NCBI GenBank assembly: GCA_028818855.1
Contig: JAPPMY010000192.1
Location: 31,119-95,118 of the forward strand
Reading direction: 5' to 3'
From: Rhodospirillales bacterium
GTDB taxonomy: Bacteria > Pseudomonadota > Alphaproteobacteria > UBA828
Length of the DNA stretch: 64,000 bases
The translations under genes and the position numbers were made by a program. Numbering within the stretch: the stretch's first letter is position 1; every line of letters begins with the position of its first letter. Below are positions 45,433 through 64,000 of the stretch, piece after piece. Under the pieces are notes generated by a model that saw only the letters and a list, made by a program, of their open reading frames with translations, made no database searches and was not told where the DNA came from.

Positions 45433-45445
45433 CGCCTCTCACGCG

Positions 45446-46351
45446 CTAAGTGTTTTCCGGTTTTTCCGCGCAGTAGCGAGCGAGTTCGAAGCATCCGTCG
45501 CGCCACGCCATGGAGAGCGTCTGCAGCTGATCCATGAGCATGCGGTGGCGCTCGGTTGACATGCCGCCGAACCAAAGCATGAAAAGCAGCCGATAGGCGT
45601 ACTCGAGAAGGCGTATGTTGCCCTCGTCCTTCCCGCCGAATCCGTCGACTTCAATGACCGTCAAGCCCGATTCACGCAGCCGTTCTGCGTAGCTGGACCG
45701 GCTCTCCAAACTTCGTATCAACCAATGCCGGCATAACGGCTCGATGTACCTCTTGTGCAGATCGGCCGGCACGCCGTCGCACTGCGCCCAATCCATCGCC
45801 ACGATCCGTCCGCCGGGCTTGAGGATCCTGGCGACCTCCCGCAGGAACTGTCCCCGGTCGCCATAGTGGCAGGCACTCTCGATATTGGTGACGACGTCGA
45901 TCGAGCCGTCGGCAAACGGCAGATGTTGCGAGCAATCCCCGTACGTGAAGCCGATCCGGTCATCCAGACCCGCATCGCGGACCTTCTTCTCCGCGATTTC
46001 CAGTTGCGGCCGGCAGATGTTGACGCCCGTGACCGTGCATCCGCGTGTCTTCACCAGATGCATGGCCGTCCCGCCAATCCCGCATCCCGCATCCACCACG
46101 TGATCGCCTGCGCCGATCGCGGCGGGCGCCACGATGACGTCGATCATCCGCACCACGGCCCGCGCGAGTCCGGCCGAGTCCGCGAGGGACTCGCCCTCTT
46201 CGGGACATTCGCCATCCTCGAACAGCCCGAAGTGAATGTGATCGGGGTTCCATCCCCTGATGTAAAAGCCCGGGGTCGCTTCGCCGTAATACTGTGCGAC
46301 TGCTTGATCGTGATCCGATACGGACGACTCGTGGAGCGTGTTCATCGTCAA
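45446..46351 (-). CDS. class I SAM-dependent methyltransferase (MT1)
   Basis: Motif I VVDAGCGIGGTAMHL and post-I/II motifs (…FADGSIDVVTNIESACHY…ILKPGGRIV). Paralogous to 50130..50996. Confidence 0.85.
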   Translation of the reverse strand: MTMNTLHESSVSDHDQAVAQYYGEATPGFYIRGWNPDHIHFGLFEDGECPEEGESLADSAGLARAVVRMIDVIVAPAAIGAGDHVVDAGCGIGGTAMHLVKTRGCTVTGVNICRPQLEIAEKKVRDAGLDDRIGFTYGDCSQHLPFADGSIDVVTNIESACHYGDRGQFLREVARILKPGGRIVAMDWAQCDGVPADLHKRYIEPLCRHWLIRSLESRSSYAERLRESGLTVIEVDGFGGKDEGNIRLLEYAYRLLFMLWFGGMSTERHRMLMDQLQTLSMAWRDGCFELARYCAEKPENT

Positions 46352-46445
46352 CTCTATTCCAAGACAATGAAGTTTATGCTACGTTGCGATCTCAACTGAT
46401 GTCAATAAACACGACGGCCTATCGGCGACACAAACAACGAGTATT

Positions 46446-46505
46446 GTGCATCTCCATGCACTTGTTTCGCACCGAATCGTAGTGATGGACTACGCGTTTG
46501 TGCAT
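46446..46505. promoter_or_regulatory. Candidate operator in the MT1/YcaO divergent promoter: GTGCAT-N4-ATGCAC inverted repeat plus a third TTGTGCAT half-site
   Basis: 46446-46461 reads GTGCATCTCCATGCAC. TTGTGCAT recurs at 46498-46505. It lies in a locally AT-rich 180-bp intergenic region. No regulator gene was identified. Confidence 0.3.
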
Positions 46506-46531
46506 CGGCACCGCGTTCGCCAGGAGGAGCG

Positions 46532-48943
46532 TTGCGGCTTCGCACGCTCGACCGATCGCGTGCCCCGCGTGCCGACCCGCTTCGTCTAGGACCGTCGGGC
46601 TCCACGCAGGCCATGGCTGAGAAGGCGCCGCCGCTCGCCGATGCGCGACGCGGCATCCTGACGAAGACCACCCCCGCCGAGCGTGGCGCGATCGACCTGC
46701 CGGCGCTGACGCCGCATCTCGAGTACCGCCCGATCGGCGACGACGAGGTGCTTCTGGTATCGGACTCCTTCAACACGTTGCTGCGCGGCCGGATTCACTG
46801 TGACCTCCTGCCGCTGCTCGACGGCGGGCGCTTGCAGGACGAGATCGTCGCCGCGCTCGCCGGCACCTACGCGGCCGCCGATGTGCGCCGCGCGCTCGCG
46901 TCGCTGGTGTCGCGGGGCTATGTCGTCTCCGGCGCGCACGCGATGGAGCGGAGCCGGGCGGCTTACTGGTCCGCGCTCGGCGCCTCGCCGCGCTTTGCTG
47001 AGGAGCGGCTGGGCGCGGCCGGGGTGGCGATCGAGGGCGACGACGGCCGCCTCGCCCGGCTGCTCGCCGCCATGGGCGTCGCCACGGGCCGAGACGACCC
47101 GGCCCTCTCCGTCACGGTCTGCGCCGACTATCTGGAGGAGCGGCACGAGGCGCTCAACCGGCGCCATATCGCCGCCTGCGCGCCCTGGATGCTGGTCCGG
47201 CCCAGGGGCACGCAGCCCCTCTTCGGCCCCGTGTTCCGGCCGGCGGAGAACGGCCCGTGCTGGGCCTGCCTCGCCTATCGCCTGCAGGGCCACCGGGAGG
47301 TCCACACTTTCCTGCGCAACCGCGGCGGCGAGGAAGCGGCCTTCGTGCCCTTCGCCGCGGAGCCTGCGGTCCTCGATGCGGTCTGCGGCATCGCCGCCGC
47401 CGAGATCGCCAAATGGCTGGTGCTCGACGCCGCGGCTCCGCTCCACGAACGGGCGATCTCGCTGGACGTCGCGCGCCTCAGGTGCGAGCACCACCCGGCG
47501 ACGCGCCGGCCGCAATGCCCCGCCTGCGGCGACGCCGCACTCTACCGCGCCGACCGGCCGGCGCAGCCGGTGCGGCTGCAGCCGAGCCCTAAGGCCACGC
47601 GCAACAGCGGCGGCGTGCGTGCGGTCTCGCCGGAAGAGACCCTCGCCACCTATCGCCACCTGATCAGCCCCGTCAGCGGGATCGTGACCTGGGTCGCGCG
47701 CACCACCGACGAGACCGACCCGTGGCTGCACGTTCACTGGGCGGGCAGCAATCTGGCGCTGCGAATCAAGAGCCTGAGCTCGCTCAGGCGCAGCCTGCGG
47801 AGCAAGAGCGCCGGCAAGGGGAGCACGGCGGGGCAGTCCGAGGTGAGCGCGCTCTGCGAGGCGATCGAGCGCTACTCCAGCGCCTGCCACGGCGACGAGA
47901 TTCGCTGCCGGCGGCGCTTCTCGGACTTTCTGGCTGCCGGAGAGGCGGCGGCGATCCACCCCAACGACGTGCAGCTCTTCAGCGAACGCCAGCTGGACCA
48001 CGCGGACGAGATCAACGCGCGCGGCCATCCCTACAACGTTGTGCCCCCCCGTTTCGATGCGGAGAGGGAGACGGACTGGTCGCCGGTGTGGTCGCTGAGC
48101 GAGGACCGGCAGCGCTACCTGCCGACGGCCATGCTCTACGGCATGACGCCGGAGCAGCGCGGGCCTGCGGGCCTCTGGGCGGATTCCAACGGCTGCTCCG
48201 CCGGCAACACGCTGGAGGAAGCGATCCTTCAGGGGTTCTTCGAGCTGGTCGAGCGCGATGCCTTCGCCGTCTGGTGGTACAACCGGCTGCGCCTGCCGGG
48301 CGTGGACCTGGAGAGCTTCGGCGACGACTATCTCGCTTCCGCCCGGGATTACTACGCGGGCCACGAGCGCGACATGTGGGTGCTGGACGTGACCGGCGAT
48401 CTCGGCATCCCCGCCTTCGTCGCGCTCTCGCGCCGCAGCGATGGCGGGACCGAGGACATCATCTACGGCGCCGGCGCCCACACCGACCCCCATATCGCCG
48501 CCTTGCGCGCGGTGTGCGAGATGAACCAGTGCCTGACCTGGGTCCCGCGCCCGGGCGACGGCGACGCGCGCTACGAGGTGGACGATCCCATGTGCCTCCG
48601 GTGGTGGAAGACCGGCACGCTCACCGACAACCCTCATCTGGCGCCGGCGCCCGGCGCCGCCCTGCGCGGCGCGGCGGACTATCCCGTTCCCGATACAGAG
48701 GACATGCGGGAGGACGTCGAGCGCTGCCGCGCCCTGGTCGAGGCCAGGGGCATGGAGTTCCTGGTGCTGGACCAGACGCGGCCCGACATCGGCATGCCGG
48801 TGGTGCGGGTCATCGTGCCGGGCCTGCGCCACTTCTGGGGGCGCTTCGCGCCGGGGCGCCTCTACGACGTGCCGGTCGCGCTGGGCTGGCGCGAGTGCCC
48901 GCTCGCAGAGGCCGACCTCAACCCCGTCCCGGTCATCGCGTGA
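46532..48943 (+). CDS. fused E1-like (SagC/docking-type) + YcaO cyclodehydratase (TOMM-type azoline synthetase)
   Basis: TTG at 46532 lies 4-5 nt after AGGAGGA; an alternative ATG is at 46613. The N-terminal half is cyclodehydratase-docking-like (…LEYRPIGDDEVLLVSDSFNTLLRG…CPACGD). The C-terminal half has YcaO hallmarks SAGKGSTAGQSEVSALCEAIERYS, …NGCSAGNTLEEAILQGFFELVERDA… and a Pro-rich C-terminus DLNPVPVIA. Confidence 0.85.
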   Translation: MRLRTLDRSRAPRADPLRLGPSGSTQAMAEKAPPLADARRGILTKTTPAERGAIDLPALTPHLEYRPIGDDEVLLVSDSFNTLLRGRIHCDLLPLLDGGRLQDEIVAALAGTYAAADVRRALASLVSRGYVVSGAHAMERSRAAYWSALGASPRFAEERLGAAGVAIEGDDGRLARLLAAMGVATGRDDPALSVTVCADYLEERHEALNRRHIAACAPWMLVRPRGTQPLFGPVFRPAENGPCWACLAYRLQGHREVHTFLRNRGGEEAAFVPFAAEPAVLDAVCGIAAAEIAKWLVLDAAAPLHERAISLDVARLRCEHHPATRRPQCPACGDAALYRADRPAQPVRLQPSPKATRNSGGVRAVSPEETLATYRHLISPVSGIVTWVARTTDETDPWLHVHWAGSNLALRIKSLSSLRRSLRSKSAGKGSTAGQSEVSALCEAIERYSSACHGDEIRCRRRFSDFLAAGEAAAIHPNDVQLFSERQLDHADEINARGHPYNVVPPRFDAERETDWSPVWSLSEDRQRYLPTAMLYGMTPEQRGPAGLWADSNGCSAGNTLEEAILQGFFELVERDAFAVWWYNRLRLPGVDLESFGDDYLASARDYYAGHERDMWVLDVTGDLGIPAFVALSRRSDGGTEDIIYGAGAHTDPHIAALRAVCEMNQCLTWVPRPGDGDARYEVDDPMCLRWWKTGTLTDNPHLAPAPGAALRGAADYPVPDTEDMREDVERCRALVEARGMEFLVLDQTRPDIGMPVVRVIVPGLRHFWGRFAPGRLYDVPVALGWRECPLAEADLNPVPVIA

Positions 48944-48952
48944 GGGAGCACC

Positions 48953-50167
48953 ATGAACCTTGAGCAGCAACGGGCCGCCAGCGAGGCGCTTCTCGCGCAA
49001 GAGGCGGACTCCCTTGGCGCGCTGCTGGCACAGCTCAGGGACCGCATCTCTCCCGTGCTGATCGGCGGCGCGCAATGGCGGGCGCTGCTGGATCGCGCTG
49101 GAGATCTGCCGCCGACCCTGGGCGCCTTTCCGTTCGGCTTCGAGCTGCCGCTGCACGAGGATAGGCCGGGGGCGGACCTTGGCGTCTCGGTGGTCGGCGG
49201 GACGCGAGCGGCGGCGTTCTACGAGGAACAGGGGCGATGCCAGGACGCGAACTCGACCGCGGCCGGCATCGCCCGGCTGCTTCACGAGACCGAGCCCGAG
49301 GACTCTCCGCTCCGCCAGGTCGTGGGCCGGAAGATGATGCTCGAATACGACGTGGAATCCGCGCCGGGCGGCACCCATCCGGACCCGGGCATCTTCCTGC
49401 GGCCGGCGGAGCGGCCGATCTTCGGTGACGGCGACAGCCGCCGGAGCCAAGACATCGGCGTCGTGCTGGAGGCGATCGTTTCAGCCGCCGGATGGCAAAC
49501 CGATAGCGCCGAGCGGCGCGTGATCGAGCAGGTACACCGGGCGCAAGGGAGGGGCGTTCGGATCGAGTCCTTCGGCGTGTTTCCCGCGCGCGAGCGTGCG
49601 ATCCGACTGGCGGTAACGGGCTTTCGCACCTCGCGCGACGTCGTGGCGTTTCTGGAAAGCGCCGGCTGGTCGGGGTCGCATTCGCGCGCCGGCGCCGCCG
49701 TGTCGCGATTCGAGGACCGCAACGCCTTCGTCAGCACGGGGGTCCATTTCGATGTCCATGCCGACGGCCTGGGCCCGACGCTGGGCCTGAGCTTCCTTGC
49801 CAAGGAGCGTGTGGCGAACGACCCCCGCTACTGGGTGGACAGCCCCCGTCTGTGGGCGCCGTTCCTGGACGGCTTGCGCGAGGGTGGTCTTGCCGTTCCG
49901 GACAAGCTGTCGGCGCTGGCCGGCTGGTCGTCGGGCGTCGAAACCCTGTTCGGCGCGGGCGGCCCGTACGTGCTCATGCGGGGCATTCACCACGTCAAGC
50001 TCGTGCTCGGCGGCGACCGCATCGAGCAGGTCAAGGGCTATGTCTACTTTCTCATCTGCGCCTGGCCGCAGGGTGGGCAATCCGCCACACGTAGCCGCGC
50101 GGGCGTTGCGACGCGTTTCGTACCTGGTCCTATCCGGGCTTCGCGCCGGACACGAGGTGATAGGTGA
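48953..50167 (+). CDS. hypothetical protein (404 aa), second gene of the YcaO operon
   Basis: ORF track. It starts 7 nt after the YcaO stop. The 3' end overlaps the convergent MT2 gene by ~38 nt. I recognise no family motif. Confidence 0.6.
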   Translation: MNLEQQRAASEALLAQEADSLGALLAQLRDRISPVLIGGAQWRALLDRAGDLPPTLGAFPFGFELPLHEDRPGADLGVSVVGGTRAAAFYEEQGRCQDANSTAAGIARLLHETEPEDSPLRQVVGRKMMLEYDVESAPGGTHPDPGIFLRPAERPIFGDGDSRRSQDIGVVLEAIVSAAGWQTDSAERRVIEQVHRAQGRGVRIESFGVFPARERAIRLAVTGFRTSRDVVAFLESAGWSGSHSRAGAAVSRFEDRNAFVSTGVHFDVHADGLGPTLGLSFLAKERVANDPRYWVDSPRLWAPFLDGLREGGLAVPDKLSALAGWSSGVETLFGAGGPYVLMRGIHHVKLVLGGDRIEQVKGYVYFLICAWPQGGQSATRSRAGVATRFVPGPIRASRRTRGDR

Positions 50168-50996
50168 ACACGCCTTCCCGCAAGCCCTGATCGTAGTTGA
50201 CCGTCGCCTCCATGAACTCCTGGGATGCACTGTTCACCCCGCCCGACGGCGACGTCAGAAAGGTGAACAGCAGCCACCCCTTGCTGATCCGCTCCGTGGA
50301 CGCCGCCGCTTCGGTGGAAAGGTCCTGCTCCTTGATTCCTTCGAATCCCGCCTCCTCCATGGTCGCGAGCACGTCGCGCCACGGTTCCAGCGGCAGCATG
50401 CGCCAGCCCCGCTGCGCGATGGCGTGAGCCTCTTCCTGGGCCTCTGACAGCGGCGCGCCGCTCCGCAGCCCTTCCAGTGCCTGCCAGCGGCCCCCCGGCT
50501 TGAGCACACGGTGCACGCCCTGCAGGTAGGCGAGCTTGTCCGGCGCATAGCAGAACGATTCGTGGTTTAGCACCGTGTCGAAGCAAGCGTCGAGGAAGGG
50601 CAAGTCCATGAAGTCGCCGTAGCGGAACTCGACCAGGTCGCCGACCCCGCGCCGTTGCGCGTGCTCCGTCGCCACGGCGACATGAGGCTCGCAGATGGTC
50701 ATACCGGTGACGTGAACGCCGTATTGCTCCGCCAGCCAGATCGCCGTGCCGCCGACGCCGCAACCGGCATCCAGGAAGCGACGGCCGGGCTCGAGGGCGC
50801 ACCCCTGCACCAGCGTGCGGTTGGCGCGAACCAGGGCTTCCTGGTCGGTTGTCGTGTCCGGCCCCCACAGGCCGAAGTGACAGGCCAGGAGATCGCCGCC
50901 GAACTTCTCCATCCGCTCGGTCAGCGCGGCGTAGTGCTCGGCGACGGAGGTTTCCGTCTCCGCGTCGCTCTCGGGCAGTTGCTGCGCGCTGCTCAT
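50130..50996 (-). CDS. class I SAM-dependent methyltransferase (MT2)
   Basis: ATG at residue 23 of ORF 50130..51062 forms an ATGA overlap with the FAD-oxidase stop. Motif I FLDAGCGVGGTAIWL; …FLDACFDTVLNHESFCY…VLKPGGRW. Confidence 0.85.
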   Translation of the reverse strand: MSSAQQLPESDAETETSVAEHYAALTERMEKFGGDLLACHFGLWGPDTTTDQEALVRANRTLVQGCALEPGRRFLDAGCGVGGTAIWLAEQYGVHVTGMTICEPHVAVATEHAQRRGVGDLVEFRYGDFMDLPFLDACFDTVLNHESFCYAPDKLAYLQGVHRVLKPGGRWQALEGLRSGAPLSEAQEEAHAIAQRGWRMLPLEPWRDVLATMEEAGFEGIKEQDLSTEAAASTERISKGWLLFTFLTSPSGGVNSASQEFMEATVNYDQGLREGVFTYHLVSGAKPG

Positions 50997-52300
50997 GGAC
51001 CTTCTCCGAATGGCATGCCTTGCGCTCGGAACACCCGACCGGGATCGAACGCCTCCTTCCACCCCAGCCCCGTCTCGAAGGCCTCGCCGTAGTGTTGCTC
51101 CCAGTCCGTGCGCCCGTATCCCACGTGGCCGGAGAGATAGCTCTTTCCGCCGAGGTCGACGAGCGTTCTGCCGATCTCCCGCAGCCTTCCGGCCAGCTCG
51201 TCTGCCCTGGCGTGGTCATCCAGCACGGCGAGGATCGAGTACGAGAGCATGCGCTCTCCCGTCGGATGCATGAAGAGCGGGGCATCGAGCGCATCGGTCC
51301 TGATCGGGTATACCCCGGTCCAGCTGCGCGGCGAGCGCGGCACCCATTGCGGGTCCAGCCACGGCTGGAGGAGGAGCGTTCGCAGCGTCTCCCAGGGCAT
51401 GAACCAGTCGCGCCACGGGTGGAAATTCGTCGACGCGAAGCCGGTCTTCGGAAACATCTGGGCGTGCCCGACTTCGGTCGTGTCCCAGACGATCGCCATC
51501 CGGTCGTATCCCAGCCCGTGGAGCACCCGATCGTGGTCGATCATCTCGTCGTACTCGACCCCGGCGCGAAGAATGAACCGCTTGTCGTGGGAGCGGCTCT
51601 CCGCCCGCAGGTGGTCGAAACGGCCATCGTCGACGACCTGCTCCAGGTCGCGCGCGAAGCGATCGACATCGTAGTAGCGAAGCTCGTACTGCCGGATGCG
51701 CTTGCCAGCCCTGCGCAGCCTGATCCACGCCTCGGTGATGATGCCGAACTGTCCCTGCCCGCCCCTCACGGCATCGAACAGGCCGCTGTTCCGGGTGGAC
51801 GAGCAGCGCACGCGCTCGCCGCTGCCGGTCACCACGTCGAGCTGCTCGACCTGCCCGATCTGCATCCCGTAGCGATGCGAGGTGGACCCCAGCCCGCCGG
51901 CCGAGAGCGTTCCGCCCACGGTCACCTCTGCGATGTCCGCCAGCACCCGCGGCAGCCGCCCGGTCCCGTGCAGGGCGTCCACGACGCTCCCCCACAGCGC
52001 GCCGCCTTGCGCGCGCACCAGCTCCCGCCCCAGGGGCTGGACCCGGTCGAGCCGCATCGTGTCGAGCACCAGGTCGCCGTCGGTGAGGCATTGGCCGCCC
52101 TGGGAGTGCCCGCCCCCGCGAACGGCCAGGCGGATGCCGTCCCGCGCGGCCATGCGGACGATGCGCGCCACCTCCCCGGCGCTTTCCGGCATGGCCACCG
52201 CGTCCGGCGCTTGCCGCCGCATTCGGCTGAAGTCGTACGACCGTGCCTCACGGTCCTCCCGGTTCGTGCTCAGGCGCGGCACGAGGCCCTGCTCGGTCAT
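50993..52300 (-). CDS. FAD-binding PCMH-type oxidoreductase (FAD_binding_4, cytokinin-dehydrogenase-like C-terminus)
   Basis: PDAVAMPESAGEVARIVRMAARDGIRLAVRGGGHSQGGQCLTDGDLVLDTMRLDRV is the FAD_binding_4 core. 435 aa. Confidence 0.85.
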   Translation of the reverse strand: MTEQGLVPRLSTNREDREARSYDFSRMRRQAPDAVAMPESAGEVARIVRMAARDGIRLAVRGGGHSQGGQCLTDGDLVLDTMRLDRVQPLGRELVRAQGGALWGSVVDALHGTGRLPRVLADIAEVTVGGTLSAGGLGSTSHRYGMQIGQVEQLDVVTGSGERVRCSSTRNSGLFDAVRGGQGQFGIITEAWIRLRRAGKRIRQYELRYYDVDRFARDLEQVVDDGRFDHLRAESRSHDKRFILRAGVEYDEMIDHDRVLHGLGYDRMAIVWDTTEVGHAQMFPKTGFASTNFHPWRDWFMPWETLRTLLLQPWLDPQWVPRSPRSWTGVYPIRTDALDAPLFMHPTGERMLSYSILAVLDDHARADELAGRLREIGRTLVDLGGKSYLSGHVGYGRTDWEQHYGEAFETGLGWKEAFDPGRVFRAQGMPFGEGP

Positions 52301-52334
52301 CCCTGGCCGGACGCCTCCGATTCCGGCGCTTCGC

Positions 52335-54713
52335 TCAATCGGACCGGTCGACGGCTACCGCAGTCGCGCCTCGCGCGGACCCGGTGCGCCGGTCCGTGGC
52401 CATCAGCAGAGGCGGCAGGATCAGGAGGTCGGCGGCAAGCGCGAAGGCGATGATCAGCGCCGTGAGCAGGCCGACCTGCGCGGTGGGAATGAACGGGGAC
52501 GCCAGCAGGATCAGGAAGCCCGCAACCAGCACGGCGGTGGTCGTGAACACCGCGCGGCCCACGGTCTCGAACGCGTAGCGCACCGCCTCGTCCGGCGCGT
52601 AGCCGTGCTCGCGCCGCGCACGCCGGTACTTGCTGAGGAAGTGCACCGTGTCGTCCACGACGATTCCGATCGTCATGGCCACCACCACCGACAGCGAGGT
52701 GCCGACCTCTCCCACCGCCAGCCCCCAGATGCCGAAACCGATCACGGCGGGGACGAAATTGGGCACGAGGCTTATCAGGCCGAGCCTGAGCGAGCGGAAC
52801 GCGATGAGGAGAAGCAGGGAAATGCCGCCCAGCACGATCATGGTACCGATCAGCATCGCCCGTATGTTGCGTTGCCCGATATGCGCGAACAGCAGGGCGG
52901 GCCCCGAGCCCTCGGCGCTCACGATGTGCGGCGTGTTGCCCTCCAGCCACGCCTCCGCCCGCGCGTTCAGATCCAGCACCTCGGCCGACGACAGGGTCTT
53001 CGCCGTCACAGTCACGCGTGTTGCCGACTTGTCGATATCGATCCGGTTGTTGAGATCGAGGCCGAAGGGAAGCGAGAGCTCGTAAAGCAGCAGGTACTGC
53101 GACGCGAGATCGTGCTCTTCGGGCAGGTTGTAGGCCTCCGGATCGTCGCCGTGCATGGTCTTGTTGAGCTGCCGGAAGGTATCGGTGATGACCGTGACGT
53201 GCCGCGTTTCTGGCTGGGCCCGGTACCAATCCGCGAAGGCCGACACGTCTGCGAGGAAGGCGGGGTTGCTGACTTCGCCGGGCCCGGCCGAGGCGAGCGA
53301 GTATTCCAGCACGGTGTTCCCGCTCAGGTGCTTGTCCAGGAAATCCGTGTCCTGGCGAAACTCGACGCTCTCGTCGAAGAAGTGCACCAGAACGTCGTTC
53401 AGGTCGTTGCGCGGGACGGCCGCCGCCATCGCGGCCACGACCACCGCCGAGCCGAGCAGCAGCACCCAGCGCCGGCGCACCACGAACTCCGCGATTTGCC
53501 CCATGAGCCGGTCTTCGCGGCTGACGGCCTTCGGCGGGCGCGCCGGCATCAGCGAGAGCGCTGCCGGCAGGAAGGTCACCGTGAGCAGGAACGAGGCGAT
53601 GATGCCGAAGGCGACGAAGGTGCCGAGGTGACGGTGCGGCGGCACCTCGGAGAAGTTCATGGCGAGGAAGCCCAGCGTCGTGGTCAGGCTCGCCAGGAAG
53701 ACCGGATAGAGATTGACCCGGACCGATTCGACGATGGCCTCATTCTTCGTGTCGCCTGCCTGGAGGCGCTGCTGAATCGTCACCACCAGGTGGACGCAGT
53801 TGGCCACGACGATCATCAGCACGATGGTGGGCGCCGGCGCCGTGGGCGCGGACAGCGGCAGGCCGGCCCAGCCGCCCAGCCCCATCGCGACCACCATGGA
53901 GGAGCAGATGACGCTCCCGGTCGCCATCACGCCGGAGAAGGTCCGCGTGAGAAGGCCGAAGATCAGCGCCATGATCGCCATGCTCACCGGCAGGAAGATC
54001 ATCTGACTGTCGACCGACGCCTCGGTGAAGACGTGGTTGACCATCACCGTCCCGACCAGCCGGACGTCGATGCCGGCGAAGCGCTCCTCCGTCTCGGCAG
54101 CGAGGCTGCGCGAGAATTCGGCGATTTCGGGGATCGTGACGGTCTGGTCCTCTTCAGGCAGCTCGATGGTGACGTTGACCGCGCTCACGCCACCGTCGCG
54201 GGCCAGGACGTTGCCGGCGAGCCGCGGGTCCGCCAGGGCGATAGCGCGGATGCGGGAGCGTTCCTCCGCATCGCCCACGGCCGTCGGATCCACGAGGTCG
54301 CGCACGACCAGGTCGTCGCCGTCCGCCATCGTGTGCTGGAAGTTCGCGATGGAATCGACGCGCCGCGAATAGGGCGTCTCCCACGCGCGCTCGGTCAGCC
54401 AGATCGCGGCCTCAAGCGCCTGTTCCGACGTGGCGTCGCCATCGTCGGGAACGATCATGAAGAGGACGTTGTGGCTCTTGCCGTAGGTGTCTTCCAGCGA
54501 TTCGAGCGCGATCAGCTCGGGATTGTCCTCGCTGAAGAAGATGCGGTAATCGGTGGAGAACTTGAGAAACAGGCCGCCGGCCGCGAACAGGATGACCAGG
54601 GCCATCGAGCCGGCGATGATCGGCCAGCGATACGCGACCACCCACTCGGCGTATCGCGTCTCAAAGGGCCGCGCCGCGCTAGGGGAGGTGTCTGCCATCG
54701 ACGAAGCCGCCAT
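52335..54713 (-). CDS. MMPL/RND-superfamily exporter (792 aa)
   Basis: Two 6-TM bundles each follow a large periplasmic loop. The family-like N-terminus is …YRWPIIAGSMALVILFAAGGLFLKFSTDYRIFFSEDNPEL…. An alternative ATG is at 54698. Confidence 0.85.
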   Translation of the reverse strand: MAASSMADTSPSAARPFETRYAEWVVAYRWPIIAGSMALVILFAAGGLFLKFSTDYRIFFSEDNPELIALESLEDTYGKSHNVLFMIVPDDGDATSEQALEAAIWLTERAWETPYSRRVDSIANFQHTMADGDDLVVRDLVDPTAVGDAEERSRIRAIALADPRLAGNVLARDGGVSAVNVTIELPEEDQTVTIPEIAEFSRSLAAETEERFAGIDVRLVGTVMVNHVFTEASVDSQMIFLPVSMAIMALIFGLLTRTFSGVMATGSVICSSMVVAMGLGGWAGLPLSAPTAPAPTIVLMIVVANCVHLVVTIQQRLQAGDTKNEAIVESVRVNLYPVFLASLTTTLGFLAMNFSEVPPHRHLGTFVAFGIIASFLLTVTFLPAALSLMPARPPKAVSREDRLMGQIAEFVVRRRWVLLLGSAVVVAAMAAAVPRNDLNDVLVHFFDESVEFRQDTDFLDKHLSGNTVLEYSLASAGPGEVSNPAFLADVSAFADWYRAQPETRHVTVITDTFRQLNKTMHGDDPEAYNLPEEHDLASQYLLLYELSLPFGLDLNNRIDIDKSATRVTVTAKTLSSAEVLDLNARAEAWLEGNTPHIVSAEGSGPALLFAHIGQRNIRAMLIGTMIVLGGISLLLLIAFRSLRLGLISLVPNFVPAVIGFGIWGLAVGEVGTSLSVVVAMTIGIVVDDTVHFLSKYRRARREHGYAPDEAVRYAFETVGRAVFTTTAVLVAGFLILLASPFIPTAQVGLLTALIIAFALAADLLILPPLLMATDRRTGSARGATAVAVDRSD

Positions 54714-54911
54714 GTAGCAGCGCCAGGGGCGGTCTCGGAAAACCGCCCCTGTTCAGCCTATGGCGTGGCAGCCGCGCAGAAAACCAGACCATGATCCGCA
54801 ACCAACAGTCTCCAGGCGCGGGAAGGCGCTATTCACGCCCCCACGCCGGGAGACACCGCATATCATCGGTTCGGTCCGGGCCGCGCGAGCCCGTGGCCGG
54901 GCCCGTCTCGT

Positions 54912-55166
54912 TCAGAGGCCGCAGCAGCAGAGGCCCGCGGAGATCGCCTCGAGCTGCTCTTCGTTCAACTGCGCCTGAGGCGGCAGCGCCAGATGGACGG
55001 TCTGCATGTCGCTCTCGTGCACCTGGATCTCGATGTTGTCGGGGATCGTAATGCCGAATTCCTCGTGCATGACGCCCTTGGGATCCGACACGAGCCGGCT
55101 CCGGAACTCGGAATCCTCGACCGCCTTCTCCGTGAGATGGACGCGAATCTCTTCTGCAGACTTCAT
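54912..55166 (-). CDS. NHLP (nitrile-hydratase-like leader peptide) family RiPP precursor, 84 aa; predicted core LCCCGL
   Basis: ATG at residue 27 of ORF 54912..55244, 9 nt after GGAGGA. The leader MKSAEEIRVHLTEKAVEDSEFRSRLVSDPKGVMHEEFGITIPDNIEIQVHESDMQTVHLALPP fits the NHLP pattern. It ends in LNEEQLEAISAG (double-Gly-type site), followed by LCCCGL and the stop. Confidence 0.85.
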   Translation of the reverse strand: MKSAEEIRVHLTEKAVEDSEFRSRLVSDPKGVMHEEFGITIPDNIEIQVHESDMQTVHLALPPQAQLNEEQLEAISAGLCCCGL

Positions 55167-55560
55167 GGCCTTAGTTCCTCCATCGTGAGTCTCGGGGCAT
55201 GTAAGCGAGGCAGCGTTCGGCCGCGCTATGCCGACCTGTTCCACGTCTTATTGAAAGGAGCATCCCGAATCCAGAATTTTTTTTGTTGGGTCGGTATAAG
55301 AAAAGCATATGACCCCCCTGAAAAGGTCCAACCATTCCCTAATGGGCCGGCGCGGCGACATCGCCTTCGATCGGGGCTTCGAACCCGCGAGGGCCCGGTC
55401 GCCGCAGGGGATGTGGCGCCTCGCGACCATGCCGGCGCCGGTGACAGAAGCGGTCGAGGCGGGTATAGCAGACTGTCGTGACTCTCGTCGGGTCGGGCGT
55501 ACAGCCTGACCGCAGAGCGGCTGGAGACCGGCCGCACACGGCCAGAATGGACTGCAACCG

Positions 55561-56451
55561 GTGTTCACCAACCCGTTTCGAGACGAAGCCGCCGCCAGCC
55601 GGAACGAGCGCCAGCAGCTCGATCACTTGCTGCGCATCACCGCGCCCCACGAACGCATCATCCTGGTCGGCATCGCAGTGGTGTTGGTGGGGTTCGTGGC
55701 GTGGGCCTTTTTCGGCAGCATAGAGCGTGGCGTCACCCTCGACGGGGTCCTGATCGAGCCTGGCGCCCGTCACGAGGCGATCTCGTCCGAACCCGGCCAC
55801 CTCGTGGAGTTTCTGGTCTCTCCCGGGGACCGCGTCGCGGCCGGGGAGCCGATCGCACGGCAGACGGTTCCCGAGCTGGACCGCGAGGAGGCTGCCCTGC
55901 TCGAACGGGTTGCCCTGCTCGAGACGGAAGCCAGAGAGGCTGGCGCGGACAGCGATGCCTTGCGCCCTCTGCTGGACCAGGCACGCTCTGCATTGCTGCA
56001 GATGGAGGCGCGCCGCAGCGCGAGGGCGGCCATCGTCAGCACGAGCGGCGGCCAGATCGCGGCCCTCGGCGCCGCGCCCGGGGACTACCTGCCGGCGGGG
56101 ACGGCCGTCGCCCTGCTGCGCGAGGCGGCGGATGCGCCGCCCGAGGCAGTGCTGCGGGTTGCACCGGACGACGCGCAGCGCATCCGGCCGGGCATGCGGG
56201 CGTCGGTCAAGGTGGAGACAACCGAGGGCGAGCTGCGTCGGCTGGAGGGAACGGTCGCATCCGTCGCCGCCGGGCCGGTGCCGCGCTGGCTAGCGCCGTT
56301 GCTGCCGGCGGCGGCAGAACCCGGGCATCGGGTCGCAATCGCCCTCGACGAGGCGCCCGCCCCTGCCGTGCCGGACGGCACGCCCTGCCGGGTCCGTATC
56401 GAGCTCGGCCGGGACGCGCCGGCCGCGCTGCTCGCCCTCGGGCCATCCTGA
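55561..56451 (+). CDS. HlyD-family secretion adaptor (NHLP bacteriocin system type)
   Basis: GTG start per the ORF track. The N-terminus FTNPFRDEAAASRNERQQLDHLLRITAPHERIILVGIAVVLVGFVAWAFFG fits the lFR.eAl…LD.ll.vt.p pattern. Coiled-coil middle region. Its stop abuts the next ATG. Confidence 0.8.
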   Translation: MFTNPFRDEAAASRNERQQLDHLLRITAPHERIILVGIAVVLVGFVAWAFFGSIERGVTLDGVLIEPGARHEAISSEPGHLVEFLVSPGDRVAAGEPIARQTVPELDREEAALLERVALLETEAREAGADSDALRPLLDQARSALLQMEARRSARAAIVSTSGGQIAALGAAPGDYLPAGTAVALLREAADAPPEAVLRVAPDDAQRIRPGMRASVKVETTEGELRRLEGTVASVAAGPVPRWLAPLLPAAAEPGHRVAIALDEAPAPAVPDGTPCRVRIELGRDAPAALLALGPS

Positions 56452-58674
56452 ATGCTCCGGCGCGGCGCGAAAGGGCCGGCGGACGCGGATAAGAAGCCGA
56501 CGGCGGAGCCCGTGAAGCGGCGCGTGACCACGCCGCTCCTGCTGCAGATGCACGCGACCGAGTGCGGCGCCGCGTGCCTCGGCAGCGTGCTTGCCTTCTT
56601 CGGGCGCTGGGTGCCGCTCACCGAGCTGCGCGTCAAGTGCGAGGTCAGCCGGGACGGCTCCAGCGCCGCCGGCATCGCGCGGGCAGCCAGGCATTTCGGC
56701 CTCGAGTGCTCCGGCCGCAGCGTGACCCTGAACCAGCTCAGGAAACTGCCGCTGCCACTCATCCTGTTCTGGGACTTCAACCACTTCCTCATTCTGGAAG
56801 GGTTCGATCGCAATCGGTTCTATCTCAACGATCCGTCCACGGGCCGCCGGTCGCTCTCCGAGAAGGAGTTCAGCCAGGGGTTCACCGGGGTCGCGCTGCA
56901 ATTCAAGCCCGGTCCGGACTTCGAGCGCGGCGGCGCGCGCCCCAACATCCTGCAACGGCTCCCGTTCTGGCTCGGCGGCACCGGGGGCACGCTGGCCTAC
57001 ACGGTCGCGTGCGGCTTGATGCTGGCCATCCTGGCGCTGGCGACGCCGGCGCTGCTCGCCATCTTCGTGGACCGCGTGCTGGGGGAGAACGAGCCCTGGA
57101 CGGCGCTCGTGGCCGGCACCATGGTTGCCGCCGCCGCTCTCGTGTACGGCCTTACCTGGCTCAAGAGGCGTTGCCTGCAGCGCCTGTCCGTCAAGATTTC
57201 GGTAACGGCCGGGAATCGCTGCATGTCCCAGCTGCTGCGATTGCCGGTGGATTTCTTCAGTCACCGGCTGGTCGGCGAGCTGACGGGGCGCGTGCTGTCC
57301 GTCGACAGGATCGCCAAGGGTGTCTCCGAGCACTTACTGTCGCTCCTGATCGAAGTCGTGATGAGCGTGGTGTTTCTGGCCGCCATGCTCGCCTTCGATC
57401 CAGTCCTGGGATTGATCGTGTTGGGCCTTGCGGTGGTGAACGGGGCGCTCGTGCGCATCCTCACGCGCATCCGCACCGACAAGAGCCATGCCCTGCGGCG
57501 CGAGCAGGGGCTCCTGGTGGGTGTCGGCACCCTGATGGTGCATCAGACGGACACCCTGCGGATGACCGCCTCCGACGATCGCTTCTTCAACCGCTGGAGC
57601 GGCCATCAGGCGCGCGAGCTGATCGCGCGCCAGCGCTTCGCCGAGATCGGTCACATCAACGCGGCATTGCCGGGCCTCTTCATGGTCCTGGGAAACGCGG
57701 CGGTGCTGACCTTCGGCGCGACCCAGGTCATGGCCGGCGAGCTGACCCTGGGCATGCTGGTGGGCTTCTACATCGTGGCGTCCATGTTCCTGGCGCCGGT
57801 GGCGCGCTTGGTCGAGTTCGCCGACGAGCGTCAGGCGCTCGAGGCCGACATGCAGCGCCTCGACGACATCACGAAGAGCCCGGACGAAGCGGGAGCGGAC
57901 GAGCGGCCGCCGTCTTCGGACGCCATCGCCACGTTCAACGGCCGGCTGCAACTGGCCGGCCGGGTGGAACTGCGCGACGTGACCTTCGGCTACAACCGGG
58001 CGCGCCCGCCGCTAATCAAGGACTTCAGCTTGACCATCAAGCCGGGGCAGCGGGTCGCGGTGGTGGGCCCCAGCGGATCCGGCAAGTCGACGGTGTCGCG
58101 CCTGGTTTCCGGCATCTACGAGCCCTGGTCCGGCGACATCCTGTTCGACGGCTCCCCGCGCGACGACATTCCCGGCGACGTTCTATCGCGCTCGCTCTCG
58201 ATGGTGGATCAGCACGTCTCCCTCTTCTCCGCGACCGTGCGCGACAACATCACCTTGTGGAATCCCTCGGTCCCCGACGACAGCGTGGTCGCCGCGGCCA
58301 GGGACGCCTGCATCCACGACGAAATCCTCAGCCGGCCGCTGGGCTACGCGACGCCGGTGGACGAGGACGGGGGCAACTTCAGCGGCGGCCAGCGGCAACG
58401 GCTGGAGATCGCCCGTGCGCTGGTGGGCAACCCGACGGTGCTGGTCCTGGACGAGGCCACTAGCGCGCTCGATGCCGCGACAGAGGAGCGCGTCGACGAT
58501 GCGCTGCGGCGGCGGGGGGTGAGCTGCCTGATCGTCGCGCACCGGCTGAGCACGATCCGGGACTGCGACCAGATCATCGTTCTCGACAAGGGCGAGGAAG
58601 TGCAGCGCGGCACCCACGACGAACTGATGGCGGACGAAGCCGGCGCCTACTACCGGCTCGTCAAGGCGGGCTGA
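56452..58674 (+). CDS. bacteriocin-type ABC exporter with N-terminal C39 peptidase domain (peptidase/permease/ATPase)
   Basis: C39 domain LLQMHATECGAACLGSVL (catalytic Cys) … FWDFNHFLILEG (His). Six TM segments. Walker A GPSGSGKST, signature FSGGQRQRLEIARAL and Walker B VLVLDEATSALD. Confidence 0.9.
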   Translation: MLRRGAKGPADADKKPTAEPVKRRVTTPLLLQMHATECGAACLGSVLAFFGRWVPLTELRVKCEVSRDGSSAAGIARAARHFGLECSGRSVTLNQLRKLPLPLILFWDFNHFLILEGFDRNRFYLNDPSTGRRSLSEKEFSQGFTGVALQFKPGPDFERGGARPNILQRLPFWLGGTGGTLAYTVACGLMLAILALATPALLAIFVDRVLGENEPWTALVAGTMVAAAALVYGLTWLKRRCLQRLSVKISVTAGNRCMSQLLRLPVDFFSHRLVGELTGRVLSVDRIAKGVSEHLLSLLIEVVMSVVFLAAMLAFDPVLGLIVLGLAVVNGALVRILTRIRTDKSHALRREQGLLVGVGTLMVHQTDTLRMTASDDRFFNRWSGHQARELIARQRFAEIGHINAALPGLFMVLGNAAVLTFGATQVMAGELTLGMLVGFYIVASMFLAPVARLVEFADERQALEADMQRLDDITKSPDEAGADERPPSSDAIATFNGRLQLAGRVELRDVTFGYNRARPPLIKDFSLTIKPGQRVAVVGPSGSGKSTVSRLVSGIYEPWSGDILFDGSPRDDIPGDVLSRSLSMVDQHVSLFSATVRDNITLWNPSVPDDSVVAAARDACIHDEILSRPLGYATPVDEDGGNFSGGQRQRLEIARALVGNPTVLVLDEATSALDAATEERVDDALRRRGVSCLIVAHRLSTIRDCDQIIVLDKGEEVQRGTHDELMADEAGAYYRLVKAG

Positions 58675-58678
58675 CCCG

Positions 58679-61600
58679 ATGGCGACGGCGGAACCCGGCG
58701 CGCTCGCCCGGCTCGCAGCCGAGGCCGGGACGCCCGTGCCCTGCGCCGGCAATCTGCCGCTTGACATGGGCGATCCGCAGTTTGCCTGGTTCGTCGACGA
58801 GGGCGCAGTGGACCTCTTCCTCGTCGAGTATCGGGAGGGGGTCGAGCATGCGGCGCCGCAACACCTGCTGCGCGCCGATTCCGGCCGCCTGCTGCCGGGT
58901 GTCGCGCCGCAGGCTGAGCACACCACGCTCCGCCTGATCGCAAAGGGATTGCCGGGCACCGTGCTGCGGCGCCTCCCGGTCGCGAGCCTCGATGCGGTCG
59001 ACAGCACAGAACTGGCGGCGCACGTGGATGCGTGGATCATGGACATGTCTGCCATGCTCGTCCGCGACGTCGCGAACTCCCCGCGCGCGGAAATCTTCAT
59101 CGAGCCGGGCGAGGCGCCCGCGGCGAGCAGCGGCACGCTCGCAGCCCGGCGGGGCGTAGTGTGGGTGACGGTGGCGAAGGGCACGGGACTCTTTCTCGGT
59201 CTCATCGATGCGGTGGAGAGCAGTGTGGACGGCGGGGCCGCGCCGGCCGATATCCCGCTCACGACGATGACTTGGCTCGCGCTGTCGGAAGCGCTGCTAC
59301 TTTCCGCCCGATCCTCCGAGACGCTCGCCGAGGAGGGCAAGCTGCTTCCCGCCCTCGCGGGCTTCCATGAAGTGGCGTTCGACCTGGAACGGCTCAACCG
59401 CAGCCTTGCGGTCGTCGACCAGGCGAACCTGGAACGCGCACGCGCGACCAACCGCCGCGCCGACGAGGACAACGCGCGGCATCGCCTGTTCAACCTCTAT
59501 GGCCTGGCCAGAGACGTGGAAGCCGGGGCCGGCGATACGGCGCTGCGCGACGCGCTGCGAACGATTGGGCGCCACGAGGGGATCGATTTCAAGTGGCCGG
59601 CGGTGACGGAGGCGTCCGATCCCGTCGCCCTCCTCGGCGATGTCCTGGATGCCTCCGGTGTGCGCGCCCGCCGCGTGCGCCTCGCCCGGGACGACAGGTG
59701 GTGGATCGGCAATTCCGGTGCGATGCTGGCGTTCCGAGAAGACGACGGGCGCCCCGTGGCGCTGCTGCCGGGCGTGCTGGGCCGCTACCGGGAGGTCGAT
59801 CCCCGCGACGGGCGCAGCAAACGCATCACGGCCAGGCGCGCCGAATCGCTCCGCACCGAGGCGTGGTTGTTCTATCAGCCGCTCACGGCCGCGAGCGCCG
59901 GATTGCGGGATCTGTTCCGGCTCGCGCAAAAGGGGCTCGGCGTCGAGGTCGCGCGCTTCGTCGCGGCCGGGCTTCTGGGCGGTCTCGTCATGCTCTTGCC
60001 GGCCATCGTGCTCGGTTTCGTCGCGGACGACGTCATCCCGGGCGGCGAAGCCGGCCCGCTGTACGCGGTGACCGCCGTGCTGGTCGCGGTCGCCCTGATT
60101 GGGGCGCTGCTGCACGTCCTGCAGGGATTCGCCCTGATGCGGATCGAGGGACGGGTTGCGTCGCGGGCCGAAGCCGCGTTCTGGGATCGTCTGCTCCGGC
60201 TCCCTCCGAGCTTTCTCCATCGCTATCCGGCCGGCGATCTCGCCATGCGGGGCATGACCTTCCAGAACCTGCGCGACGCCGTGCACGGCGTAGTTGCCAA
60301 CGCCGTGCTCTCGGTCGCCTTCCTGCTGCCCGCATTCATCCTCATCGTCTTCTACGACGCGACGCTGGCCGGCATCGCCGCAGCCTTCGGCCTGGTTTCC
60401 CTGATCGTGACGGTGGCCCTCGGTCTCAGGCAGATCCCGCCGCACGGCATCGTGTTGCGTGCCACGCATCGCCTGGCCGGCCGGCTCTTCCAACTCATCA
60501 ACGGCATTTCCACGCTCCGCGTCGAGGGCGCCGAAGGCTCGGCGTTCGCGGTCTGGGCGCGGGACTATCGCGACCAGAAGCATGCGGAGCTGCAACGCGG
60601 CGCCTTCGAAGGGCATCTGCAGGCGCTCAGCGCCGCGCTGCCGCTGGTGGCGGGCGCCGTGCTGCTCGTCGCCGTGACGCTGCCGGACGACAGGACGATC
60701 GCGATCGGCGACTTCCTCGTGGTCTACACCATGTTCATGGTGTTTCAGGCAGCGGTGGCGCGGCTCGGCGCATCGTTCGGCGCCGTCGCGGCCATCATGC
60801 CGGCGCTGGATCAGGTCCGGCCGTTGCTCGCCGAAGCCCCGGAGACGAGCGCCGAGGGAGAACCCGTGGAGACGCTGGGCGGCGACATCGCCTTCGACCA
60901 CGTCAGCTTTCGCTACAACCCCGACGGGCCGCTGATCCTCGATGACGTCTCGATTCGCGCGCGCCCCGGCGAGTTCGTCGCCATCGCCGGTGAATCGGGA
61001 GCCGGCAAGAGCACGCTGTTCCGCCTTGCCCTCGGCCTGGACGAGCCGTCCGGCGGCGCGGTGTATTACGACGGCCGCGACCTCAGGCACCTCAACGTCA
61101 AGCAGGTGCGCCGGCGCATCGGCGCGGTGCCGCAGGCCGTGCAGCTGCACCCGGAAGACGTGTGGGACAACATCGTCGGCGACCACGAGGACGCGACCGA
61201 GGAGGATGCCTGGCGGGCCGCCCGGCTCGCGGCTGTCGACAAGGAGATAGCGGCGATGCCCATGGGGATGCTGACCTGCGTGGGCGCCAGCGCCAGCGTC
61301 ACCTCGGGAGGCGAGAGCCAGCGCATCGTCATCGCCCACGCGCTGCTGCGCAACCCCCGCATCCTGCTGCTGGACGAGGCGACGAATTGGCTCGACAACG
61401 ACAGCCAAGCCAGGGTCATGCAGAACCTGGGCCAGCTAACGTCGACGCGGATCGTCATCGCCCACCGCCTCTCCACGCTGCGCCAGGCGGATCGCATCTA
61501 CGTGATGCAGGCCGGAAGGGTGGTCGACGAAGGGTCCTATGCGGATCTGGTCGAGCGCGAGGGCGTCTTTCGAAATCTGGTTCGCCGGCAGCTAGTCTGA
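58679..61600 (+). CDS. second ABC exporter subunit (permease/ATPase) with a long N-terminal cNMP-binding-like region, NHLP export-system type
   Basis: 973 aa. N-terminal FAWFVDEGAVDLFLVEYREG…. TM domain. Walker A GESGAGKST, a degenerate signature TSGGESQRIVIAHAL and Walker B ILLLDEATNWLD. Confidence 0.85.
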   Translation: MATAEPGALARLAAEAGTPVPCAGNLPLDMGDPQFAWFVDEGAVDLFLVEYREGVEHAAPQHLLRADSGRLLPGVAPQAEHTTLRLIAKGLPGTVLRRLPVASLDAVDSTELAAHVDAWIMDMSAMLVRDVANSPRAEIFIEPGEAPAASSGTLAARRGVVWVTVAKGTGLFLGLIDAVESSVDGGAAPADIPLTTMTWLALSEALLLSARSSETLAEEGKLLPALAGFHEVAFDLERLNRSLAVVDQANLERARATNRRADEDNARHRLFNLYGLARDVEAGAGDTALRDALRTIGRHEGIDFKWPAVTEASDPVALLGDVLDASGVRARRVRLARDDRWWIGNSGAMLAFREDDGRPVALLPGVLGRYREVDPRDGRSKRITARRAESLRTEAWLFYQPLTAASAGLRDLFRLAQKGLGVEVARFVAAGLLGGLVMLLPAIVLGFVADDVIPGGEAGPLYAVTAVLVAVALIGALLHVLQGFALMRIEGRVASRAEAAFWDRLLRLPPSFLHRYPAGDLAMRGMTFQNLRDAVHGVVANAVLSVAFLLPAFILIVFYDATLAGIAAAFGLVSLIVTVALGLRQIPPHGIVLRATHRLAGRLFQLINGISTLRVEGAEGSAFAVWARDYRDQKHAELQRGAFEGHLQALSAALPLVAGAVLLVAVTLPDDRTIAIGDFLVVYTMFMVFQAAVARLGASFGAVAAIMPALDQVRPLLAEAPETSAEGEPVETLGGDIAFDHVSFRYNPDGPLILDDVSIRARPGEFVAIAGESGAGKSTLFRLALGLDEPSGGAVYYDGRDLRHLNVKQVRRRIGAVPQAVQLHPEDVWDNIVGDHEDATEEDAWRAARLAAVDKEIAAMPMGMLTCVGASASVTSGGESQRIVIAHALLRNPRILLLDEATNWLDNDSQARVMQNLGQLTSTRIVIAHRLSTLRQADRIYVMQAGRVVDEGSYADLVEREGVFRNLVRRQLV

Positions 61601-61649
61601 CCGGCCACCGGGCACGCGTGAGATTGGACCGGCGTCGGACACGAGCCCG

Positions 61650-63985: not shown

Positions 63986-64000
63986 GACATTGACCTCCGT

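Follow-up and report, generated by a model that had tools for sequence, protein, structure and literature searches.

The window analysed here is a 64-kb stretch of the contig JAPPMY010000192.1 from a Rhodospirillales bacterium, with a G+C content of ~69%, and the subject of this report is a biosynthetic gene cluster (BGC) at positions 43000-61600 for a peptide made by the ribosome and then modified after translation (RiPP). It is highly probable that the locus is an intact cluster of the srp type with an LCCCGx core, operating by the pathway proposed below. The cluster itself is no discovery, and a specialist would not be surprised by it. Going by the sequence, however, the window copy represents a separate LCCCGx subtype within the srp family, one that lacks the brominase, because a halogenase was not found, the core is LCCCGL, and the locus has tailoring genes of its own. 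A first-pass annotation of the window had described a complete eleven-gene cluster. The eleven genes stand, each with an open reading frame (ORF) at the coordinates given for it, but the 5' boundary was wrong, a twelfth gene at 43000-45432 (+) having been missed.

The main yield of the analysis is the corrected boundary and a fold-level annotation of two conserved genes of unknown function. Few biosynthetic loci of sponge microbiomes are shared as widely or transcribed as highly as the srp-type clusters, and published srp work has focused on the brominase and the YcaO enzyme. In a comparison of 81 loci, the genes conserved beside YcaO are those for an AlkB-type oxygenase fusion and an ABBA-fold protein. 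These provide candidates for the missing srp steps, namely oxidation without an FMN dehydrogenase and possibly lipidation, and the question of the mature srp product becomes more directly testable.

Gene content was derived from the ORF list and from the Pfam and NCBIfam profile hidden Markov models; values following model or structure names are E-values unless given in bits. The scan of 185,579 species-representative genomes gave 320 related loci. Related loci were compared with the window proteins by tblastn, after which their precursors were extracted, and the grouping by core type covers 81 non-redundant loci.

Precursor peptide and family membership

The precursor gene (54912-55166, -) encodes an SrpE-like NHLP (proteusin) peptide of 84 amino acids (aa), with an ATG start and a GGAGG ribosome-binding site upstream. 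That it is an NHLP precursor, as proposed at first pass, is borne out by TIGR03793 (67.4 bits, cut-off 50.9) and by Pfam NHase_alpha (5.6e-10). The translation, read directly, is MKSAEEIRVHL...LNEEQLEAISAG-LCCCGL, in which LNEEQLEAISAG is the region of the srp-type LxxEEQL recognition motif, the leader ends with ...EEQLEAISAG, and the core LCCCGL is coded by 54915-54932. The junction between EAISAG and LCCCGL is of the double-Gly type and is followed by the short Cys-rich core, an arrangement kept in most of the 81 loci.

The window precursor is 100% identical to that of locus L001 and 57-77% identical to those of most related loci, among which the leader end ...EEQLEA[IV][SA]AG hardly varies. 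The related cores consist of X-C-C-C plus 0-2 residues. LCCCW is the most frequent (38 precursors), followed by LCCCG[ILVF] (18), RCCC (7), MCCCGI (6), WCCCG[NTQ] (5), LCCCL/V (4), and LSCCL (3).

The srp clusters were reportedly first described by Nguyen et al. in JACS in 2021. The name denotes a 'sponge-derived RiPP proteusin', in which the SrpE precursor has the core LCCCW, the YcaO enzyme SrpC turns its three Cys into thiazolines, and SrpI adds bromine to the Trp at the C-terminus (PMC10858898, PMC10286304). The window locus shares with srp the 84-aa NHLP precursor, the leader end ...EEQLEAxSAG, the X-C-C-C core, a fused RiPP recognition element (RRE)/E1-like/YcaO protein, and PCAT-type exporters, and the loci that carry the published LCCCW core are direct homologs of it. 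In contrast, the two strict srp features, the LCCCW core with its C-terminal Trp and the Trp-6 brominase SrpI, are both absent from the window. No WxWxIP motif was found in the window and no Trp_halogenase match among the genes scanned, a result that includes no comparison with the SrpI sequence; in the window and the related loci together, the WxWxIP scan returned only three short spurious ORFs. Another difference from srp is the presence in the window of two class-I methyltransferases and of a cytokinin-dehydrogenase-like FAD oxidase.

The family, referred to as srp or LCCC-motif proteusins, is widespread in sponge microbiomes (bioRxiv 10.1101/2023.06.09.544420, PMC11832590, PMC9426513). Srp-like gene-cluster families are noted in PMC9426513 and clade 3 precursors in bioRxiv 10.1101/2023.06.09.544420, and according to the latter study, transcription of BGC genes in two sponge species is highest, across phyla, for the srp precursor genes (~252 bp). 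The surveys of sponge metagenome-assembled genomes (MAGs) report the same architecture as in the window (PMC11832590, PMC9426513, bioRxiv 10.1101/2023.06.09.544420). The earlier suggestion that the gene combination and core might be uncatalogued or atypical is thus not sustained, since both belong to this published family. The LCCC-motif BGCs are said to contain 'several genes of unknown function' (PMC11832590), and the surveys leave these conserved genes unannotated; here they correspond to the AlkB-type/GlnE-like fusion and the ABBA fold.

The best 80 of the 320 loci are all from MAGs and are distributed over many phyla. They include Alpha- and Gammaproteobacteria, Nitrospirales (Nitrospirota), Nitrospinota, Binatia, Thermodesulfobacteriota, Acidobacteriota, and Opitutales, as well as Ca. 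Poriferihabitaceae and Ca. Porisulfidus, whose names mark sponge association. Protein identity across phyla is 45-80% family-wide, and in a close relative the cluster proteins are 95-100% identical and the structure is the same. As dozens of independent genomes share this gene set, the arrangement of the genes is not due to chance.

In several genomes a pair of srp-type precursors, differing in their cores, lies no more than ~10 kb from the anchor gene. Loci L024, L049, L061, L063, L067, and L082 have two each, and L021, L022, and L051 also belong to this class; the pairs are, for example, LCCCW with MCCCGI, or WCCCGx with LCCCW. This suggests that one enzyme set serves several cores, or that clusters are nested.

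Cyclodehydratase and the genes conserved beside it

The SrpC-like cyclodehydratase (46532-48943, +; 803 aa) was assigned by TIGR03604, TIGR03882, and Pfam YcaO. The first-pass annotation had called it a fused E1-like/YcaO protein, and both models confirm this above their cut-offs (TIGR03604, 266 bits against 219; TIGR03882, 150 bits against 36.9). Pfam YcaO matches at 6e-94, the winged helix-turn-helix family PF21084 at its cut-off, and PqqD weakly. The domains are a winged-helix RRE at ~60-131, an E1-like docking domain at 217-385, and YcaO at 427-800, and the C-terminus ...NPVPVIA is PxPxP-like. The protein is 64-80% identical to the YcaOs of the LCCCW loci (tblastn). Because the homologs have 776-790 aa, the true start may lie ~27 codons further downstream.

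An oxidation of azolines (-2 Da) had also been anticipated, for which a canonical enzyme is lacking. No match to an FMN-dependent dehydrogenase of the SagB/McbC type (nitroreductase family) was found among the genes scanned in the cluster and its flanks, and there is no TfuA or other sulfur-transfer gene among the scanned window genes.

The twelfth gene (43000-45432, +) encodes an 810-aa fusion of an AlkB-type di-iron oxygenase-like part and a GlnE-like part, assigned by Pfam (FA_desaturase, 1.8e-24; GlnE, 1.5e-10), by a family profile searched against PDB (AlkB 8F6T, E=1e-62, and 8SBB, E=2e-52; GlnE 3K7D, E=7e-18), and by Foldseek, which matches 1V4A (template-modelling (TM) score 0.69), 3K7D, and 8F6T. 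The match to AlkB alkane-1-monooxygenase covers residues ~50-370 and that to GlnE adenylyltransferase residues ~460-800. The AlphaFold2 (AF2) model is poor in the membrane domain, with a predicted local distance difference test (pLDDT) score of 30-70, and for this reason the AlkB assignment is taken from the sequence profile and the His boxes. These boxes, HELVHR, EHVYIHH, NYIQHYGL, and QRHPDHH, are invariant in 16 family sequences, so that the AlkB di-iron motifs are all present. In the GlnE-like domain the first Asp of the catalytic DxD is replaced by Ala in the window (AxD) and is variable across the family, and the pattern G-x(n)-D-x-D is absent; the domain is probably non-catalytic and not a nucleotidyltransferase.

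The gene directly downstream of YcaO (48953-50167, +) had been listed as a 404-aa unknown. As far as sequence families go this description holds: neither Pfam nor NCBIfam gives a match for the protein or for 10 distant relatives (the models including Trp_DMAT, PTase_Orf2, and cyanobactin F). Its fold, however, can be named from the AF2 model and Foldseek. The model (pLDDT 90.3, predicted TM score (pTM) 0.89) has five beta-beta-alpha-alpha repeats, and all 50 listed Foldseek matches in PDB are ABBA prenyltransferases (probability 1.00, E 2e-6 to 7e-4, TM 0.36-0.55), among them DMATS, PriB, EpzP, LimF, PagF, and KgpF. The protein as modelled has the ABBA PT-barrel fold, that is, it is aromatic-prenyltransferase-like. 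The residues K127, R213, R215, R343, H346, H347, and Y363, on the barrel strands, are invariant.

For the ABBA protein 523 homologs of 372-384 aa were found, with 46-97% identity and no Pfam domain, and the family comprises 1278 cluster representatives at E<=1e-3 of 1.84 billion. The contexts of two homologs show the same cluster, with the FA_desaturase/GlnE fusion just upstream in both. The order of the three genes, AlkB/GlnE fusion, then YcaO, then ABBA, is kept across phyla. A distant homolog, P0323, is located in a different NHLP cluster (L086:6195-9095; also L087), together with a JmjC_2/cupin enzyme, the same PCAT trio, and a precursor ending in ...GVAGG-SNDQWTDYSNW. Because this distant member is found in a separate NHLP cluster, the ABBA-like family appears to be a recurring partner of NHLP precursors also beyond the YcaO systems.

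The window ABBA ORF has a 25-aa C-terminal extension relative to the 97%-identical P0001, and it overlaps the 3' end of the second methyltransferase gene by 38 bp.

Accessory genes and core subtypes

The accessory genes track the core subtype. Among the 17 loci with [LM]CCCGx cores, the first methyltransferase (MT1) is present in 15, the second (MT2) in 12, and the FAD oxidase in 11, while a 433-aa fusion protein is found in 1. The 31 loci with LCCCW only show the opposite pattern: none has MT1, MT2, or the FAD oxidase, and 29 have the 433-aa fusion, which the window lacks. The seven LxCC[LV] loci have MT2 in five and the FAD oxidase in four, but neither MT1 nor the fusion in any. MT1 and MT2 are both present in all three loci with WCCCGx only, and they occur in three and five, respectively, of the six RCCC loci; the FAD oxidase and the fusion are absent from both groups.

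MT1 (45446-46351, -) is a class-I S-adenosylmethionine (SAM) methyltransferase (Methyltransf_11, 6e-22). It resembles RebM, MitM, and sarcosine-dimethylglycine methyltransferases (NF041675, 3e-27, below its cut-off; PDB 3BUS, 6e-30; MitM, 7e-26), and from its distribution it is classed as an accessory gene of the non-Trp core subtypes. MT2 (50130-50996, -; 288 aa) is likewise a class-I SAM methyltransferase (Methyltransf_11, 1e-21), with PDB matches to 6UV6 (2e-26), MitM (3e-25), and LahSB (1e-11). The two are 27% identical (BLASTP, E=1e-30), and each is similar to methyltransferases of small molecules, RebM and MitM among them. A 416-aa ORF at 50044-51294 (-) was considered as the MT2 gene and rejected as a shadow ORF without a family match; such ORFs are common in the window because of its G+C of ~69%.

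The FAD oxidase (50993-52300, -) is a member of the VAO/PCMH family (FAD_binding_4, 1.6e-29; Cytokin-bind, weak). Its closest PDB matches are cytokinin dehydrogenases (1.5e-41 and below), and EncM matches at 5e-25. The ATGA overlap between its stop and the MT2 start, noted at first pass, was checked base by base and is correct; MT2 is accordingly predicted to be translationally coupled to the oxidase. The oxidase gene is seen only with LCCCG[LIVF] and LxCC[LV] cores and is absent from the LCCCW, WCCCGx, and RCCC loci; from this distribution over core types it is tied to cores ending in an aliphatic or aromatic residue.

The 433-aa protein is exemplified by L083:3847-5148 (+) and has homologs in ~40 related loci, e.g., L035, L039, and L057. 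Its N-terminus is homologous to the NHLP leader (Pfam NHase_alpha, 3e-5) and shares 35-45% identity with the precursor of the window, and its C-terminal ~350 aa contain weak squalene-hopene-cyclase-like repeats (QxxDGSWPE). It is unusual for a leader-like domain to be joined to a putative enzyme.

Exporters

Directly downstream of the precursor is the gene for an RND transporter of the MMPL/HAE3 type (52335-54713, -), an identity proposed earlier and upheld by Pfam MMPL (1.3e-29). It has a sterol-sensing domain, matches TIGR00921 at 3e-49 (below the cut-off), and is of the hydrophobe/amphiphile exporter type. The gene is present in 16 of the 17 [LM]CCCGx loci.

Divergent from the precursor are the genes of a three-component exporter: a short HlyD-type membrane-fusion adaptor (55561-56451, +; HlyD_3, 5e-8), a C39-peptidase/ABC exporter (PCAT) (56452-58674, +; TIGR03796; Peptidase_C39, 2e-32), and ABC2, a second ABC permease/ATPase subunit (58679-61600, +; TIGR03797 over residues 287-972). 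The catalytic Cys, His, and Asp motifs of the C39-ABC are present as QMHATECG, NHF, and NDP. TIGR03794, TIGR03796, and TIGR03797 are the best matches for HlyD, C39-ABC, and ABC2, respectively. The trio named at first pass is recovered as far as best matches go, but only C39-ABC exceeds its cut-off (891.6 against 853.3), whereas ABC2 (688 against 709.4) and HlyD (92.9 against 156.2) fall below theirs. ABC2 has ~286 additional N-terminal residues, which had been likened to a cNMP-binding domain; this likeness was not recovered, since the first 290 aa have no Pfam match at E<=10 and only a spurious sequence match in PDB.

Proposed pathway and alternatives

By analogy with SrpC, the leader of the 84-aa precursor would be bound by the RRE/E1-like part of the YcaO fusion, and the YcaO, with ATP, would cyclodehydrate the three contiguous Cys of LCCCGL to three thiazolines. 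Family membership and the intact motifs suggest that C39-ABC/ABC2/HlyD cuts after ...EAISAG and exports the product. The AlkB-type oxygenase is, from its fold and synteny, a candidate oxidant acting on the CCC-derived part, either by desaturation of thiazoline to thiazole or by hydroxylation; it is proposed for this role because an FMN azoline dehydrogenase was not found in the cluster. Fold and synteny likewise point to the ABBA-fold protein as a candidate prenyl or alkyl transferase for a non-aromatic site. Tailoring of the termini or side groups in the LCCCGx subtype may fall to the two methyltransferases and the FAD oxidase, and the MMPL pump may handle a lipophilic product.

A very small thiazol(in)e peptide, as had been expected, is the most likely product, in agreement with the action of SrpC on LCCCW (PMC10858898, PMC10286304). 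The product is likely to be a small, lipophilic, end-capped tris-thiazol(in)e hexapeptide, with the tailoring as presumed above; the lipophilic and end-capped character is suggested by the membrane-bound oxygenase, the putative prenyl transfer, and the MMPL/HAE3 exporter beside the precursor. The calculated [M+H]+ values are 611.235 for the unmodified LCCCGL, 557.203 for its tris-thiazoline form, and 551.156 for the tris-thiazole, to which each methyl would add 14.016, each prenyl 68.063, and each oxygen 15.995.

The linear cyanobactins, such as the aeruginosamides and muscoride A, are very short azol(in)e peptides in which ABBA-fold prenyltransferases and methyltransferases cap the N- and C-termini. 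They provide a working analogy for an ABBA protein and two methyltransferases acting on a six-residue thiazoline peptide. The cyanobactin systems differ in that their leader family, proteases, and heterocyclase lineage are unrelated, and the window ABBA protein has no detectable sequence similarity to the F-family enzymes.

Several points weigh against this pathway. The srp assignment comes from the published core and leader motifs rather than from direct alignment to SrpC, SrpE, or SrpI, and the srp literature surveyed describes no mature srp product. The HlyD and ABC2 proteins are under the equivalog cut-offs. The ABBA match is at the fold level only, with TM ~0.45-0.55, 8-18% identity, and no sequence family match; moreover, LCCCGL contains no aromatic acceptor, so that any prenylation would be non-canonical. 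As for the AlkB-like gene, it is cut off from YcaO in the window by the opposite-strand MT1 and abuts genes of fatty-acid metabolism, and no rubredoxin or ferredoxin domain was found in the fusion or in the cluster genes. AlkB acts in alkane and methyl hydroxylation and is not known to oxidise a peptide or an azoline.

A more far-reaching version of the proposal is that the conserved engine of the family is the trio of YcaO, AlkB/pseudo-GlnE, and ABBA rather than the brominase, and that it makes a lipidated tris-thiazole, membrane-active or metal-binding, which is exported by the MMPL pump. This is put forward tentatively, the chances being rather against it. If true, a ribosomal peptide would for the first time be the substrate of an AlkB-family enzyme, which might, for example, use O2 to desaturate thiazoline to thiazole in place of the missing FMN dehydrogenase. 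The ABBA protein would then alkylate a position that is not aromatic, and the product could explain the retention and strong expression of the locus in unrelated sponge symbionts.

A related possibility is that the product, instead of acting as an antibiotic-like toxin, is a small molecule that binds metal. It would be a ribosomal counterpart of the poly-thiazoline siderophores, and the MMPL pump would release it for common use within the sponge holobiont. Mycobacteria export siderophores through MMPL exporters, and yersiniabactin and pyochelin bind metal by contiguous thiazolines. In the present family the sole invariant part of the core is the three contiguous Cys, which are expected to become thiazolines, and an MMPL-type exporter lies beside the precursor. 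The family is also spread across phyla and highly transcribed (bioRxiv 10.1101/2023.06.09.544420). On the other hand, the inspected loci showed no sign of a TonB-dependent receptor, an uptake system, or a regulator responsive to metal, and a role as metallophore is considered unlikely. It concerns the biological function of the product and is compatible with the biosynthesis proposed above.

It might further be argued that the AlkB/GlnE gene is a mere neighbour from lipid or alkane metabolism and that the cluster comprises the eleven genes listed at first pass. In the window the gene does adjoin genes for acyl-CoA dehydrogenase and CoA-transferase, it is convergent with MT1 instead of directly preceding YcaO, and its homologs are publicly annotated as 'fatty acid desaturase'. 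However, a homolog is present in 61 of the 81 related loci (identity and coverage filters applied), in many phyla, and mostly directly upstream of YcaO; in L083 the two genes overlap by 4 bp. The flanking metabolic genes, in contrast, vary between loci, and at least 120 homologs (the top 120 listed) are all ~800 aa long with the same two-domain layout. The recurrence, the position upstream of YcaO, and the overlap in L083 argue that the gene is part of the cluster, and the neighbour explanation is quite improbable.

YcaO enzymes are also known for thioamidation and amidine formation. That the window enzyme catalyses one of these instead of forming azolines has very little to commend it: TIGR03266, the model of the McrA thioamidation YcaO, does match at 1e-36, but this is far below its cut-off, whereas the best match is the SagD/TOMM (thiazole/oxazole-modified microcin) cyclodehydratase model, above its cut-off and with the fused E1-like docking domain. 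The core is Cys-rich, the sulfur-transfer partner TfuA is missing from the scanned genes, and the homologous SrpC makes thiazolines (PMC10286304).

Least credible of all is that the locus is a decaying or silent remnant without a product, for, although the ABBA-like ORF has its C-terminal extension and HlyD is short, the cluster as sequenced spans 43000-61600 with twelve full-length ORFs and intact catalytic motifs, the G+C content at third codon positions (GC3) of its genes is 0.78-0.91, as is typical of expressed genes in this genome, the relative with 95-100% identical proteins keeps the structure, and the family persists at 45-80% identity across phyla.

Comparison with other RiPP systems

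The combination of NHLP/Nif11-type TOMM precursors with the export trio was reportedly described by Haft, Basu and Mitchell in 2010. The window resembles those systems in its leader family, the double-Gly-type cleavage site, and the three-component exporter (HlyD, C39-ABC, and ABC), but its core is far shorter (6 aa), it has the extra MMPL exporter, and its HlyD and ABC2 are below the cut-offs. The mpr system of a methanotroph (MprE/MprC/MprD; PMC12455567) and nostatin A (PMC11583998) also combine an NHLP leader with YcaO azolines, as in the window. In mpr, mprD is co-expressed with the YcaO gene mprC, the cores are longer and varied, and MprC does not accept SrpE leaders (PMC12455567). The clusters of the azol(in)e-bearing linear peptides microcin B17 and streptolysin S, in contrast to the window, have an azoline dehydrogenase.

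Gene calls and surroundings of the cluster

A gene call based on GC3 retains 10 of the 11 listed genes and loses MT2 alone, because the extended ABBA ORF runs into the 3' end of that gene. The three transcription units proposed at first pass are revised to about five. Scans for promoters and terminators in the window gave counts at chance level and are uninformative, and the Rfam and tRNA scans of the whole window gave zero matches.

Family scans of the flanks at 41.2-43.0 kb and 61.6-64 kb recognised no cluster genes. Directly 3' of ABC2 (61600-64000) the G+C content drops from ~0.69 to 0.55, and its ORFs lack both the high-GC3 signature and any family match; the border of inserted foreign DNA may lie here, or the stretch may be non-coding.

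Positions 1-41200 of the window are devoted to ordinary metabolism and transport. They encode SurE, a branched-chain amino-acid ABC system, two acetoacetate decarboxylase-family genes, a molybdopterin oxidoreductase, an amidase, hydantoinases A and B, an amidohydrolase, an acyl-CoA dehydrogenase, and CoA-transferase subunits. A 226-aa ORF (41906-42586, +) with a fibronectin type III domain (6e-7) is situated between these last genes and the cluster and is not conserved in the related loci.

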